In this document: positions 9,611 to 50,049 of the stretch, one piece after another | Layout of the letters: every line of letters starts with the position of its first letter | How positions within the stretch are numbered: the stretch's first letter is position 1 | Assembly: GCA_017936745.1 (NCBI GenBank) | Contig: JAGBEY010000016.1 | Coordinates: forward strand, 192 to 64,191 | Direction: 5' to 3' | Length of the DNA: 64,000 nt | Origin: Clostridia bacterium | Lineage (GTDB): Bacteria > Bacillota > Clostridia > UMGS1840 | Notes under the pieces: generated by a model | What the model saw: the letters and a program-made list of their open reading frames with translations, nothing else | Told to the model about the DNA's origin: nothing | Database searches by the model: none | Program-made: the position numbers and the translations under genes

Positions 9611-9644
9611 AAAAATAAAAAAATAGACTTTGCAATCTGCAAAG
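9611..9644 (-). terminator. Rho-independent terminator-like hairpin (minus strand)
   Basis: ctttgca-atc-tgcaaag (9628-9644). On the minus strand a T-rich run follows it (the complement of 9611-9623). Confidence 0.45.
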
Positions 9645-9732
9645 CCACCCTGACTGATGCCTGATTCTCCACCGGTCACCTTTTTAAAAACTGACAAGTC
9701 TATTATGAAAATAATAAAAAAAGGATTGATTT

Positions 9733-9764
9733 CAAAAAAAAAAGCACTTGCAATTTGCAAGTGC
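9733..9764 (-). terminator. Strong rho-independent terminator (minus strand)
   Basis: Near-perfect palindrome agcacttgcaa-t-ttgcaagtgct (9742-9764). On the minus strand a T9-10 run follows it. Confidence 0.7.
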
Positions 9765-9807
9765 TCTTCTTTGGGACAGCAGAATGATTAAGCTATTTGA
9801 CATTGAA

Positions 9808-9972
9808 TGAAATATCAACTTCGTTGATATGAAATAATCCTGACGGATTATGAAATATTTTTCTTTCAGAAAAATGTGAAATAAAATTTGCCTTTTCATA
9901 TTGCGTAGCAATATTTCATACACGGAGTGTATTTCATAGCGAAGCTATTTCACTTGCCAAAGGCAAATTTCA
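9808..9972. repeat. Mirror iteron-hairpin array A (TGAAATA x4, then TATTTCA x4-5)
   Basis: TGAAATA occurs at 9808, 9830, 9851 and 9877. Its reverse complement TATTTCA occurs at 9912, 9930 and 9946, with degenerate copies at 9892 and 9966. Spacers are individual hairpins: 9812-9830 (loop TTC), 9834-9851 (TGAC), 9857-9875 (TTTCA), 9898-9914 (GTA), 9918-9932 (GGA), 9936-9948 (GAA) and 9954-9966 (AAA). Confidence 0.8.
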
Positions 9973-9975
9973 TTG

Positions 9976-10007
9976 AAAAAGCGACTTGTCGAAACAAGTC
10001 GCTTTTT
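9976..10007 (-). terminator. Terminator of tRNA-Thr (bidirectional hairpin)
   Basis: gcgacttgt-cgaa-acaagtcgc is flanked by A5 and T5. It sits directly 3' of the tRNA on the minus strand. Confidence 0.75.
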
Positions 10008-10008
10008 C

Positions 10009-10084
<76 letters not shown>

Positions 10085-10095
10085 CAACAAATGAT

Positions 10096-10124
10096 ATTAT
10101 AATATATAACTTTCGATTTGTCAA
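10096..10124 (-). promoter_or_regulatory. Sigma-A-type promoter of tRNA-Thr
   Basis: The minus strand reads TTGACA (10124-10119), a 17-nt spacer, then TATAAT (10101-10096), 11 nt before the mature 5' end. Confidence 0.7.
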
Positions 10125-48358: not shown

Positions 48359-48868
48359 TTAAATGCAACTTGCTTTGTCAATATAATCTTCCAAATTTTG
48401 ACTATACGGAAAGCATCGCATAAAAGAACTTACTAATTCTTTATCTTCGCTTAAAATCAAAGTCAATGAACTGTCCCAAGGCACAATTTCTATCTTTGAT
48501 AAAGGATGTTGAAGTGTTAGCGGTTTGTTCCAGAATCCTGTATATCCATTTGCATAAGGCAAATCATATTTTAAAATATCAGCTAATTCAACACTTTTAT
48601 CAAATCCTGACAACACAGCCCATATCCATTGAAAATCTTCCTGATTGACCATTTCAGTTAATTCTTCACCTGATAACCAACAATATTCTTTGTCTAATAA
48701 TTCTTTTATTTTTTGATTATTGGGATAACATTCACAATCTGTTATTAACCAGTTGTATTCTTTTTGCTTATTACCAATCGCATCAAATATTTTTTTCAAA
48801 TATGTATAATACTTTTCGCCTTTTTCGTTAATTGCTCCATAAACCACATAATCACTTCCTTTCGACAT
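48359..48868 (-). CDS. Orphan small cytoplasmic protein (cassette 1)
   Basis: The ORF reads MSKGSDYVVYGAINEKGEKYY...NWLITDCECYP...FQWIWAVLSGF... By analogy with cassette 2, the true start may be the GTG at 48847, 7 nt after AAAGGAAG. Confidence 0.55.
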   Translation of the reverse strand: MSKGSDYVVYGAINEKGEKYYTYLKKIFDAIGNKQKEYNWLITDCECYPNNQKIKELLDKEYCWLSGEELTEMVNQEDFQWIWAVLSGFDKSVELADILKYDLPYANGYTGFWNKPLTLQHPLSKIEIVPWDSSLTLILSEDKELVSSFMRCFPYSQNLEDYIDKASCI

Positions 48869-48899
48869 TTTTCGACATATCCATATAACTCGTGTCAAG
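48857..48899 (-). promoter_or_regulatory. Conserved 43-nt leader with two tandem perfect Spo0A boxes (cassette 1)
   Basis: The minus strand reads CTTGACACGAGTTATATGGATATGTCGAAAAATGTCGAAAGGA. TGTCGAA lies at 48877-48871 and 48867-48861 with a 10-bp register. The second box abuts the SD. Confidence 0.6.
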
Positions 48900-49687: not shown

Positions 49688-49694
49688 ATTTTAC

Positions 49695-49737
49695 TCCTTT
49701 CGACATTATTCGACATATCCATATTACTCGTGTCAAG
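49695..49737 (-). promoter_or_regulatory. Conserved 43-nt leader with two tandem perfect Spo0A boxes (cassette 2)
   Basis: The minus strand reads CTTGACACGAGTAATATGGATATGTCGAATAATGTCGAAAGGA, 41/43 identical to 48857-48899. TGTCGAA lies at 49715-49709 and 49705-49699. Confidence 0.6.
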
Positions 49738-49755
49738 ACTGGATAAAAATTCAAT

Positions 49756-49793
49756 ATGATATAATGATTTCAACTCTTATGAAATCATTATAT
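49756..49793. promoter_or_regulatory. 14-bp-stem hairpin built from two copies of the ATATAATGATTTCA module; contains an extended -10 on each strand
   Basis: atataatgatttca (49759-49772), actctta, then tgaaatcattatat (49780-49793). The plus strand reads TGaTATAAT at 49757-49765. The minus strand reads TATATAAT at 49793-49786. Confidence 0.5.
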
Positions 49794-49824: not shown

Positions 49825-49996
49825 TCGATATGCAAACTTCGTTTGCTCGATATTTTTGCTACCGCAAAATCGATATGTTTTCGCTATGCTCAAACTCGAT
49901 ATGATATGAATTCTTGTCGCGTTAGCGACATATCGAGTGCGACAGCACATATCGAGTCCGCAAGACATATCGAGAATTCGTCAGAATTCATATCGA
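49825..49996. repeat. Mirror iteron-hairpin array B (TCGATAT x4, then ATATCGA x4)
   Basis: TCGATAT occurs at 49825, 49847, 49870 and 49896. ATATCGA occurs at 49930, 49949, 49967 and 49990. Spacer hairpins: 49832-49846 (loop TTC), 49854-49869 (TACC), 49915-49930 (GTTA), 49937-49948 (GACA), 49956-49966 (weak) and 49974-49989 (GTCA). A further hairpin, aagc-ttc-gctt, lies at 50004-50014. Confidence 0.8.
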
Positions 49997-50020
49997 CGAT
50001 TTCAAGCTTCGCTTAAAATC

Positions 50021-50049
50021 ATTATATCATACCAAAATCAAAATAGCAA
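50021..50049 (-). promoter_or_regulatory. Strong sigma-A-type promoter firing leftward into array B
   Basis: The minus strand reads TTGCTA (50049-50044), a 17-nt spacer that ends in TGa, then TATAAT (50026-50021). TATAATGATTTT is identical to the -10 and discriminator of the gdhA promoter in this window. Confidence 0.65.

Follow-up and report, generated by a model that had tools for sequence, protein, structure and literature searches.

Two described systems come close to the locus reported here. The Gut-1 motif, a 77-nt Rfam model (RF01706) from gut Firmicutes sequence (Weinberg et al. 2010, PMC2864571), is classed by Weinberg and by Rfam as a non-coding RNA on the grounds of covariation (PMC2864571), and has since 2010 been an orphan, a "certain RNA" to which no organism, context or function was attached. 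The REP, BIME and REPIN sequences of Proteobacteria (PMC6006769) are extragenic, multi-copy small inverted palindromes at the 3' ends of transcription units, with several sequence classes per genome and some near-identical paralogues. The locus, array A, lies in a 64-kb stretch of DNA, which we refer to in its entirety as the window, and turns out to resemble both. Through it and its relatives, Gut-1 becomes a larger, polar, mirror-built unit with hosts, a precisely defined place in the genome (either tRNA-CCA and terminator or a 3' UTR) and repeat-like copying.

With REP sequences, Gut-1 elements share extragenic, multi-copy palindromic units in inverted pairs, the position at 3' ends, the multiple classes and the near-identical paralogues. 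In REP, however, the hairpin is conserved and the linkers vary, whereas here conservation lies in the words and hairpin sequence varies freely; a conserved hairpin with a 5' GTAG foot was not found, and in 2.47 Mb of loci no linked RAYT gene was recognised beyond one Y1 match in an Akkermansiaceae locus. The Gut-1 element also differs from REP in carrying its own terminator and in having a fixed internal order.

Array A is a genuine hairpin array

Array A is confirmed as a genuine hairpin array. The original prediction had described short repeated words, direct in one half and inverted in the other, separated by unrelated mini-hairpins, and every coordinate it gave for the array is correct. 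TGAAATA occurs at 9808, 9830, 9851 and 9877 on the forward strand and at 9912, 9930 and 9946 on the reverse strand, the step from one word to the next being 22, 21 and 26 in the first half but 18, 16 and ~20 in the second; these are 7 of the 25 copies in the window, all inside 145 bp. Direct reading also recovers the degenerate copies at 9892 (cttttca) and 9966 (aatttca), as well as GCGAAGC at 9939-9945 and gcttcgc at 50006-50012. The long-range inverted repeat is real, although the 9 bp proposed for it were too few: 9880-9895 pairs with 9959-9974, over 16 nt and at 94%. Adjacent palindromes are separated by 3 bp only (GAA/TTC).

Chance in AT-rich spacers had been named as a possible source of the pattern, with shuffling as the appropriate check. 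We defined a minimal array as at least three identical 6-mers, 16-32 nt apart, with a hairpin in every spacer. Of 200 shuffles of the window with dinucleotides preserved, only 5 contained even one such array, and shuffled local AT-rich sequence (63 kb) contained 0.15 on average, while in the real window the pattern is found at array A and at a second locus, array B, only. The real arrays exceed this minimum, having four words per half, both halves, and two loci. On folding, array A has z-scores of -3.7 and -4.3, and array B has -8.0 on either strand.

Gut-1 membership and architecture of the element

The tRNA-side half of array A is a member of Gut-1: on the reverse strand, 9908-9975 aligns to model positions 1-77 with a score above the gathering score of 50 bits (Table 1), and both the model alignment and the hairpin detector find three variable hairpins with UGAAAU-type linkers. 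The convergent half, matched at 9801-9861 on the forward strand, scores below this cut-off and represents a second, weaker Gut-1-like module; among the elements scanned with Rfam, only the P-1-side half on the tRNA strand passed it. The structural RNA family with free hairpin sequence, which the original prediction had offered as an alternative, is essentially Rfam's existing Gut-1.

The architecture and polarity of the complete element are shown by Weinberg's flanked alignment together with 37 convergent elements in Clostridia MAGs. Over ~170-210 nt, the element runs from a predicted bidirectional terminator hairpin (P-1), frequently adjoining tRNA-CCA, through four word-plus-mini-hairpin units and a centre to three or four hairpin-plus-reverse-word units. 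The word is 7 nt long, the spacers are palindromes of 9-19 nt, and the centre is complementary to the first word and first hairpin arm, with which it forms helix P0. Word classes vary by locus (GTGAAAT, GTGATAT, TCGATAT in array B, CTAAAT), and several occur together in one genome, as arrays A and B do in the window. The mirror half and the word variants are already present in the flanking sequence of Weinberg's alignment, and in one of Weinberg's subgroups the hairpin half is replaced by five AUUUUCA heptads in direct succession. By comparison, the Rfam model takes in less than half of the element. Missing from it are the terminator hairpin, P0, the mirror half and the tRNA-CCA context, as are the remaining word classes (it gives array B no score) and the idea of duplication. 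The family also extends beyond the human gut, to ruminant, horse and chicken MAGs. The first description of the array is supported in part; it missed the polarity, the terminator hairpin as a part of the unit, and the nature of the long-range repeat as a conserved closing helix.

Table 1 Features of arrays A and B (positions are those of the window)
Feature	Position	Strand	Sequence or pairing	Basis
tRNA-Thr(GGT)	10009..10084	-	CCA encoded	ARAGORN; Rfam tRNA 67.3 bits
tRNA-Thr promoter	10124..10096	-	TTGACA-17-TATAAT, perfect	Promoter scan 12/12
P-1, predicted symmetric bidirectional terminator hairpin	9975..10008	-	GAAAAAGCGACTTGT-ttcg-ACAAGTCGCTTTTTC, then AATGAAAT	
5' half (Gut-1 proper)	9908..9975	-		Rfam RF01706 56.4 bits, full-length model
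Units of 5' half		-	CAA-TGAAAT, H1 ttgcc-ttt-ggcaa, GTGAAAT, H2 agc-ttc-gct, ATGAAAT, H3 acac-tcc-gtgt, ATGAAAT, start of H4	
H4	9900..9912	-	attgc-tac-gcaat	Direct reading; hairpin detector
Degenerate fifth word, after H4	9899->9893	-	ATGAAAA	Direct reading
Centre	9880..9895	-	Complements first word and 5' arm of H1 (9959-9974), giving closing helix P0	
3' half	9807..9882	-		Words; hairpin detector; Rfam Gut-1 42.8 bits read on +
Units of 3' half		-	ATTTCAC, H5 attttttc-tgaaa-gaaaaat, ATTTCA, H6 aatcc-gtca-ggatt, ATTTCA, H7 atcaac-gaa-gttgat, ATTTCAT	
T2, second predicted terminator hairpin	9736..9772	-	AGCACTTGCAAATTGCAAGTGCT then T10	Terminator scan; direct reading
Putative remnant, directly 3' of T2	9723..9733	-	GAAATCAATCC	Resembles first word and H1 arm
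Array B	49825..49996	- (forward strand of the element)	Word TCGATAT	Same architecture as array A
Array B, 5' half	49996->49930	-		
Array B, P0	49983-49994 with 49903-49914		12 nt, 100% complementary	
Array B, H5			GUUUGAGC-AUA-GCGAAAAC, tandem G.A mismatches	

At array A, P-1 begins directly after the CCA of tRNA-Thr, its 15-nt arms are 100% complementary, and its CCAGAAAAAGC..GCTTTTTC pattern is found once in the whole window. Judged by a GC-rich stem-loop with a U-tract 3' and an A-tract upstream, P-1 and T2 are predicted bidirectional intrinsic terminators; the stem of T2 was scored by the scan on the forward strand, and its T10 run is read on the reverse strand. The junction between CCA and P-1 recurs in 26 of 41 elements of the family, 6 of which are without an intact tRNA. 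P-1 hairpin sequence families are common to different genomes, and the hairpin family of T2 acts as P-1 elsewhere, as GCACTTGC..GCAAGTGC (L190, L225, L235, L268, L295 and L359). P0 of array A competes with H1. The sequence next to T2, which we judged by direct reading against the family consensus CGAAATAAATCC, is probably the remnant of a second, degenerate tandem element; the Rfam scan gave no match at that position. The window thus holds two arrays and this putative remnant.

Array B contains TCGATAT four times on each strand, with the steps of 22, 23 and 26 that had been claimed for it. As proposed at the outset, the two arrays constitute one family with a common blueprint and different words, and the architecture recurs with all four word classes; the TCGATAT class in the layout of array B is also seen in L399, L404, L435, L440 and L421. 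The Rfam scan of array B gave no Gut-1 match, its sole match, to a CRISPR-DR model, being at chance level (E = 9). Inward-facing TGnTATAAT boxes lie on both flanks of array B.

Selection on hairpins, loops and P0

Every hairpin, as well as P0, is selected for pairing. Across 196 distinct hairpins, 1063 of 1088 interior pairs (97.7%) are Watson-Crick, with stem sequences that are unrelated both within and between copies; the conserved part is the linker word. For H1 and P0 we counted pairs from anchors, the MAFFT full-unit alignment having been set aside with its 5' half mis-registered. H1 covaries (96% Watson-Crick vs 57% for shuffled partners), as does P0 (87% vs a mean of 52%). The P0 rule holds in ~30 elements, where the matches are 10-12 nt long and are mostly spaced ~75-86 nt apart. 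G.U pairs make up 6 of the 1088 interior pairs on the word-sense strand; in the 3' half, read on the tRNA strand, there are 6 G.U against 0 A.C. H5 carries tandem G.A mismatches in family sequences and in array B.

The loops obey a strand-specific rule, C[UNC]G on the word-sense strand and C[GNA]G or C[GNNA]G on the other. They are mostly triloops, and in the GNNA tetraloops the third position is not biased towards purines. Since the two halves have their GNA hairpins on opposite strands, no single strand carries all of them.

Iterons or a centromere with a cognate binding protein had been the first interpretation of this arrangement. Plasmid iterons and centromeres (parC, parH, omega sites) do repeat short words in direct and inverted orientation, but the Gut-1 element differs from them in its palindromic spacers, its many chromosomal copies, and the lack of helical phasing and of an adjacent rep or par gene. 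Word spacing in array A varies between 16 and 26 nt and is neither fixed nor phased (our family parser accepted unit lengths of 14-36 nt), the spacers are self-complementary, and there is no adjacent cognate gene: Pfam assigns the neighbours to flavodoxin, Lysine_decarbox, GNAT, UDG and SLH, several ORFs having no family, and found no Rep, Par or ribbon-helix-helix protein among them. Genomes moreover carry many copies of the element, placed behind tRNA genes, and convergent pairs with two different words argue against the notion that the two halves form one cognate site set. A replication or partition site is not supported.

Hosts and genomic address

Our survey collected 120 loci, mostly from gut and rumen Clostridia MAGs, several contigs bearing 2-3 copies each. 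The arrangement was always convergent, and none of the loci listed in full had a clean divergent (----++++) cluster. The hosts are Oscillospiraceae, Ruminococcaceae, Christensenellaceae and other Clostridia, and similar arrays exist in Akkermansia. Elements follow immediately on a tRNA CCA or on a stop codon. A tRNA gene lies 40-150 nt away in 21 of 34 loci, always transcribed toward the element and always on its Gut-1 side, and at least 12 isoacceptors are represented.

Seven elements are situated after a stop codon but ahead of the first U-tract terminator, and in two (L435, L359) a gene begins right after the last word with no promoter between; from these we infer transcription on the tRNA-sense strand. 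Arrays frequently adjoin the -35 box of the next promoter. Promoter scans revealed no consistent sigma-70 promoter on either array flank, and the -10-like boxes beside the last word are those of genes further downstream. Many copies are preceded by a strong terminator or have one on each side; at array A a strong predicted terminator precedes the element, and any RNA would thus depend on read-through. Judged by inspection of their translations, the downstream genes are diverse across the family, and PF05635 alone recurs: in ~10 elements an Avd-like four-helix-bundle gene of this family is immediately downstream. A single search returned >8000 close homologues of the PF05635/TIGR02436 family.

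Copies, paralogues and relatives

Within a genome, paralogous copies share ~99% identity, end sharply and have flanks that are unrelated. In two such pairs (L190a/b and L160a/b) the identity begins at the A-tract of P-1, in L190 already at the CCA before it, and extends to ATTTCACT; a hairpin lies close to each end, and long terminal inverted repeats are absent. Identical units of array plus PF05635 gene are found with different left flanks, and L504, compared with L506, has a 424-bp block with a second element sitting between two CCA copies. Near-identical paralogues could also stem from gene conversion rather than transposition.

A lack of conservation in relatives had been put forward as evidence that would speak against the array. 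The family is widespread in Clostridia, but the intergenic context of array A itself is not conserved: relatives whose flavodoxin is 86% and 80% identical have a different upstream context, and the Gut-1 search gave no match there. One of these relatives (L515) has tRNA-Ser-CCA and a plain terminator with no element, showing that CCA plus terminator is a normal tRNA 3' configuration also without an array. Assemblies break inside arrays, and same-strain contigs are 100% identical, so that no variation could be drawn from them.

No linked transposase or recombinase was found. A search for Y1 (PF01797, IS200-type) transposases, made with an approximate query sequence and covering 2.47 Mb of the collected loci, gave one match, in L135 (Akkermansiaceae), where the gene lies ~220 nt from the array and is itself flanked by other REP-like hairpins.

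Interpretation of the element

The reading we favour, with doubt and confidence in about equal measure, is that array A represents a modular extragenic repeat present in many copies in gut Clostridia, the "Gut-1 hairpin-array element", REP/BIME-like and located at transcription-unit boundaries. Such an element would duplicate to new sites, working and spreading as a single-stranded nucleic acid, in which strings of mini-hairpins would leave the words unpaired as recognition sites, and some factor would read the words and copy the unit. On the tRNA-sense strand it may be transcribed as a read-through trailer or 3'-UTR RNA. By analogy with REP/BIME, array A may in practice bound or insulate transcription in both directions, with the very strong tRNA-Thr promoter on one side and the flavodoxin operon on the other. 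Several observations speak against this reading. The flanks offer no consistent promoter, and an RNA of array A needs read-through past the terminator; a linked transposase or recombinase is missing; gene conversion is an alternative source of the paralogues; and the stems differ within and between copies, which those of REP sequences do not. The conserved word, together with P0 and the H5 motif, points to a specific folded molecule that does more than form a boundary, and the mirror loop rule, with UNC in one half and GNA in the other on the same strand, fits no single-transcript model.

The hypotheses thereby opened are the boundary or insulator effect, recognition of single-stranded words, and binding by the PF05635 protein, through which a second orphan, the PF05635/TIGR02436 four-helix-bundle family, may be linked to the first. 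On the practical side, the arrays break metagenome assemblies, can be mis-annotated as sRNA genes, and mark tRNA flanks that are rearrangement hot spots.

Possible, though clearly less probable than the boundary repeat, is a dedicated trans-acting sRNA, as Gut-1 was first proposed to be, whose single-stranded GAAAU-type words would bind or titrate a multimeric RNA-binding protein or an RNA, the repeat-like spread being secondary. The model here would be CsrB/RsmZ and 3'ETS-leuZ, which also carry a short motif repeatedly along a scaffold of hairpins, the tRNA 3'-trailer location matching 3'ETS-leuZ; in Gut-1, however, the motif is between the hairpins rather than in their loops, and after the terminator rather than before it. 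The covariation on which Rfam and Weinberg base their classification argues for an RNA, and H1 and P0, mutually exclusive and both conserved, are typical of a conformation-switching one. The G.A mismatches of H5, the G.U pairs on the tRNA-sense strand, the conservation of the word across Clostridia families, the similar arrays in Akkermansia, and the inward-facing boxes of array B point the same way. Yet G.U pairs are rare on the word-sense strand, and the dominance of triloops and the GNNA loops lacking a third-position purine preference make the hairpins more like DNA mini-hairpins than RNA tetraloops. An sRNA gene also fits poorly with the absence of a consistent promoter, with the many copies behind or between terminators, with different word classes in one genome, and with copies gained and lost between relatives.

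We consider it unlikely that the element is an unrecognised class of miniature mobile element that lands 3' of tRNA CCA, brings its own terminator and is read via GNA hairpins and words, with PF05635 as cargo or accessory factor of autonomous-looking copies; if true, this would be a new way of moving or copying DNA, and would give a function to an orphan protein family of very large size. The IS200/IS605-derived PATEs similarly have sharp ends, a hairpin near each, a constant short 5' flank (here CCA) and no long terminal inverted repeats. Gut-1 loci differ in that no linked TnpA/TnpB was found and in having an ordered hairpin array rather than insertion-sequence remnants as their interior, and their CCA plus terminator is also the native tRNA flank.

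More doubtful still is a strict ssDNA element, for which RNA would be irrelevant: mini-hairpins of the d(C-GNA-G) type would arise on the lagging-strand template or be extruded under supercoiling, and an HUH/Y1 enzyme (RAYT or IS200/IS605-like) would recognise them along with the neighbouring word and cut and paste the unit 3' of CCA. The loop rule with its C-G closing pair is that of the extra-stable DNA mini-hairpin family, to which the GCGAAGC of array A belongs; d(GCGAAGC) mini-hairpins and the phage N4 hairpin promoters share the 4-8 bp stems, GNA triloops and closing pair, while Gut-1 hairpins differ in forming arrays with conserved linkers, on bacterial chromosomes. The sharp, hairpin-bearing ends without a long terminal inverted repeat, the CCA at the 5' flank of most elements, the block between CCA copies in L504/L506 and the Y1 gene beside the Akkermansiaceae array are all consistent with this mechanism. 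That single Y1 match is, however, about the chance expectation for the sequence searched, the GNA hairpins are split over opposite strands, P0 and H5 are more elaborate than transposon ends require, and CCA followed by a terminator needs no array.

By far the least probable is a dsDNA protein-binding array in which the words are iterons, a centromere, operators or ParB/omega-type half-sites loading protein on both arms: the convergent direct repeats, the Weinberg subgroup of contiguous heptads and the frequent proximity to a -35 box would suit it, but unit length varies without helical phasing, the spacers are strongly selected for a self-complementarity and a strand-asymmetric loop rule that a duplex site does not need, only 3 bp remain between adjacent palindromes, and no replication, partition or regulator gene is consistently near. 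The words may also resemble known half-sites, namely parS GTGAAACA, Noc GGGAAATA and the omega heptad WATCACW; these and possible resemblances to the 16S 690 loop, to sigma-D -10 boxes and to Spo0A boxes are leads only.

Three further candidates were rejected. A rod of stacked four-way junctions, with first-half words pairing second-half words, appears in MFE folds, but convergent pairs with different words and tandem same-direction modules exist, and we do not regard it as a conserved feature. Hairpin+AUUU units as weak terminators would have just 3 U residues after each hairpin. A CRISPR array would have repeats of 23-55 nt as against 7-nt words, non-palindromic spacers about as long as the repeats, and cas genes close by, and here the spacers are short palindromes and the CRISPR-DR match is insignificant. 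In viral contigs, a three-word scan with TGAAAT returned chance hits and tandem repeats only, and the same scan with GTGAAAT returned mostly chance hits together with five real arrays.

Identity of the arrays

Direct reading of the sequence bore out all the array coordinates of the original prediction, and likewise the degenerate word copies, GCGAAGC at 9939-9945 and its complement at 50006-50012. Array A, in which a 7-nt word alternates with mini-hairpins beside tRNA-Thr, holds 7 of the 25 TGAAATA copies of the whole 64 kb window, and array B carries TCGATAT four times per strand, in steps of 22, 23 and 26. A detector requiring at least three identical 6-mers, 16-32 nt apart, with hairpins in all spacers, matched only these two arrays in the window. 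When checked against chance, a concern raised at the outset, 5 of 200 dinucleotide-preserving shuffles contained at least one minimal array, and shuffled local sequence (63 kb) contained a mean of 0.15; the arrays are a real feature, far above chance expectation.

Features of arrays A and B and their surroundings in the window
Feature	Position	Strand	Remark
tRNA-Thr		-	perfect consensus promoter; followed by CCA, then P-1
P-1 of array A (terminator hairpin)	9975-10008	-	
Array A, Gut-1 match	9908-9975	-	full model covered
Array A, second half	9801-9861	+	
TGAAATA	9808, 9830, 9851, 9877	+	
TGAAATA	9912, 9930, 9946	-	
P0 of array A (closing helix)	9880-9895 with 9959-9974	-	array A followed by 30 nt spacer
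T2 (second terminator)	9772->9736	-	hairpin family (GCACTTGC..GCAAGTGC) used as P-1 in other genomes
GAAATCAATCC	within 9723-9772	-	directly after T2
Inter-terminator stretch	9626-9735	-	next terminator hairpin 9646->9626
Array B	49825-49996	-	canonical TCGATAT-class element
P0 of array B	49903-49914 with 49983-49994	-	12/12 nt
Inverted repeat around array B	49755-49773 and 50013-50031		19-nt arms
Leader ATGTCGAATAATGTCGAAAGGAG	49694-49716, 48856-48878	-	

Array A matches Rfam Gut-1 (RF01706) with 56.4 bits, where the gathering score is 50; its second half scores 42.8 bits. Because both halves score against Gut-1, array A comprises two convergent Gut-1-like modules; it adds a new member to an Rfam family already on record, of unknown function. 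Array B is without any Rfam match. The original description of Gut-1 presents it only as a candidate non-coding RNA of human-gut metagenomes and gives neither organism nor function (Weinberg et al. 2010, PMC2864571). The flanks in the Stockholm file of that study already make the mirrored half visible, and its flanked alignment includes a GUGAUAU/AUAUCAC word variant and one locus 3' of a tRNA and terminator. The extended architecture of the element, its word classes, its linkage to tRNA-CCA and a terminator, its duplication and its PF05635 association turned up nowhere in the searchable literature. A subgroup of the published loci (BAAY01013587, hgutS8_s8_175002, BAAZ01023714) is without the mirrored hairpin half and has five contiguous heptads, AUUUUCC AUUUUCA AUUUUCA ACUUUCA AUUUCCC, about 200 nt downstream.

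Architecture of the element family

A pattern scan over species-representative genomes yielded 120 loci, most of them in MAGs of Clostridia from gut and rumen (Oscillospiraceae, Ruminococcaceae, Acutalibacteraceae, Christensenellaceae, Faecousia), and within these loci 37 convergent elements. The full listing of surveyed loci contains no clean divergent (----++++) cluster, and the sole mixed cluster (L229) looks like two arrays side by side. The element opens with P-1, a GC hairpin that in most cases is a bidirectional terminator of perfect symmetry (GAAAAAAGC...GCTTTTTTC), and continues with (C)AA(C/T)GAAAT and the first hairpin, H1. GTGAAAT with a hairpin then follows three times. The centre has the reverse complement of the first word together with the H1 5' arm (10-12 nt matches, spacing mostly ~75-86 nt), and a hairpin with ATTTCAC, three or four times over, completes the element. 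Among the elements scanned with Rfam, the match above cut-off lies only on the P-1-proximal half, on the forward (tRNA-sense) strand, which is the minus strand for both arrays of the window.

This layout, P0 and the motif of the fifth hairpin (H5) included, also occurs with the words CTAAAT (L207), TCGATAT (L399, L404, L435, L440, L421 and array B) and GTTATAT/GTGATAT (L504 and Weinberg loci); further array words are ATGATG, GTGAAT and GTGAAG, and CGAGAT in Akkermansia. Pairing between the halves dominates the minimum-free-energy folds; as a conserved feature it is ruled out by convergent pairs with a different word in each half (L129, L133, L233) and by tandem modules in one direction (L131). 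GC-rich arrays sharing this grammar are found in Akkermansia (L131, L135). One MAG has TGAAAT three times and then CGAGAT four times, in one direction, within a 440-bp tandem repeat (L131, 2250-3350), and in an Akkermansiaceae MAG (L135, 6985-7875) 220 nt separate an array from the gene of an IS200-like Y1 transposase (PF01797), a gene with other REP-like hairpins on its flanks.

Probable folding as single strands

Across 196 distinct hairpins with unrelated stem sequences, 1063 of 1088 interior pairs are Watson-Crick, and 64% of the loops are triloops. The loops follow a rule: C[UNC]G on the strand that reads the word as GTGAAAT, C[GNA]G or C[GNNA]G on its complement. When the element is read forward, UNC triloops on short stems make up the 5' half, and the 3' half has longer stems with GNA/GNNA loops (G.U versus A.C, 6 versus 0). 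H5 contains tandem G.A mismatches (AUCGAAC-GAA-GUGAGAU), which direct reading also finds in array B (GUUUGAGC-AUA-GCGAAAAC). An anchor-based test over six different arm sequences gave 96% Watson-Crick pairs for H1 versus 57% for shuffled partners, and 87% versus 52% for P0, which shows that both covary. Unit length is variable and without helical phasing (16-26 nt in array A), and adjacent palindromes of array A have GAA/TTC alone between them. Pairing, loop rule, G.A mismatches, covariation, unphased units and GAA/TTC gaps together point to elements that fold as single strands, RNA or single-stranded DNA, rather than to a duplex protein site.

The scarcity of G.U pairs and the loops of GNA/GNNA type look DNA-like, or would fit a constraint on both strands, and P0, H5 and the 3'-UTR copies look RNA-like. 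The best-supported reading, to which we give about an even chance, takes array A for one copy of a modular extragenic repeat made of hairpin arrays, which duplicates to new sites, folds single-stranded and sits at transcription-unit boundaries. Such a repeat would resemble REP/BIME in lifestyle but is built oppositely, from constant linkers and free hairpins. A dedicated sRNA with sponge action is possible though doubtful; an HUH-mobilised, strictly single-stranded-DNA element seems unlikely. The duplex protein-binding array originally proposed from the iteron-like repeats is highly improbable on the pairing, loop, covariation and phasing evidence.

Genomic context and probable copying

A tRNA gene lies 40-150 nt from the element in 21 of 34 loci, with at least 12 isoacceptors represented, and the polarity is constant: transcription is always toward the element, and the tRNA is always on the Gut-1 side. 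CCA stands directly 5' of P-1 in 26 of 41 elements, six of which are without an intact tRNA. Seven elements are preceded instead by a stop codon and a hairpin without U-tract, which places them, on the forward strand, within a 3' UTR. The element is often followed by a second terminator or by the -35 box that belongs to the promoter of the next gene. In the window, GAAATCAATCC appears to be what is left of another element, arranged in tandem and now decayed. As a hairpin-array repeat, the element would be transcribed as read-through or 3'-UTR RNA, may act as a boundary between the strong tRNA promoter and the flavodoxin operon or insulate one from the other, and could spread via some word-reading factor.

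Paralogues are sharp-ended. The pair L190a/b is identical from CCAGAAAAAAGC to ATTTCACT (~215 nt with 3 differences) between unrelated flanks, the pair L160a/b from the P-1 A-tract through ATTTCACT, and families of P-1 hairpin sequences are common to several genomes. Other assemblies of the window strain break within arrays A and B; short-read assemblies seem to fall apart at the arrays, as they would at multi-copy repeats in general. Three contigs of this strain from other samples (L123, L126, L127) begin within one array or the other. The window comes from a "Clostridia bacterium" MAG. Relatives whose flavodoxin-operon homologues are 86% and 80% identical differ in what lies upstream and show no Gut-1 match; array A is therefore missing from the corresponding place, although these are not callable as strict empty sites, upstream synteny being too different. 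One of the two has tRNA-Ser-CCA and a plain bidirectional terminator. Compared with L506 (~725), L504 (497-925) has an extra 424-bp block exactly between tRNA CCA and P-1. This block contains, besides another terminator, a complete element of the GTTATAT/GTGATAT class and ends in ..GCCA, so that CCA stands on both sides of the insert.

A linked PF05635 gene

In at least 10 elements, a PF05635/TIGR02436 four-helix-bundle gene starts at most ~60 nt past the last word, at measured distances of 15-54 nt. The loci that bear on this link are L134, L168, L184, L182, L196, L153 (7186-7330), L435, L440, L359/L363 and L484-L513; the window itself lacks the gene. This 23S-rRNA-IVS protein family is related to the DGR accessory protein Avd, and a protein-side search gave more than 8000 close homologues. 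The full unit of P-1, array, promoter and gene recurs in nine of nine distinct upstream contexts examined (three protein clusters), with tRNA-CCA before P-1 wherever the flank is intact. An identical protein is found beside different flanks, and the units have a second P-1 hairpin copy 3' of the gene. Among the contigs with PF05635 genes, many measure no more than 0.5-2 kb.

Other features of the window

The short stretch between the terminator hairpins at 9626-9735 has a weak promoter-like site (9735..9708), a G-rich core and no Rfam match, and could be a small RNA or micro-ORF. Each arm of the inverted repeat around array B has an inward-facing TGaTATAAT extended -10 box, and these boxes would drive convergent transcription into the array. 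The conserved leader ATGTCGAATAATGTCGAAAGGAG, also at L514 1575-1600, comprises two TGTCGAA repeats, which we take to be Spo0A-box-like, and ends in the ribosome-binding site. Two small genes next to each other have this leader upstream, as does a DUF7336 gene in a relative, and the leader belongs to a 52-bp repeat of 90% identity.
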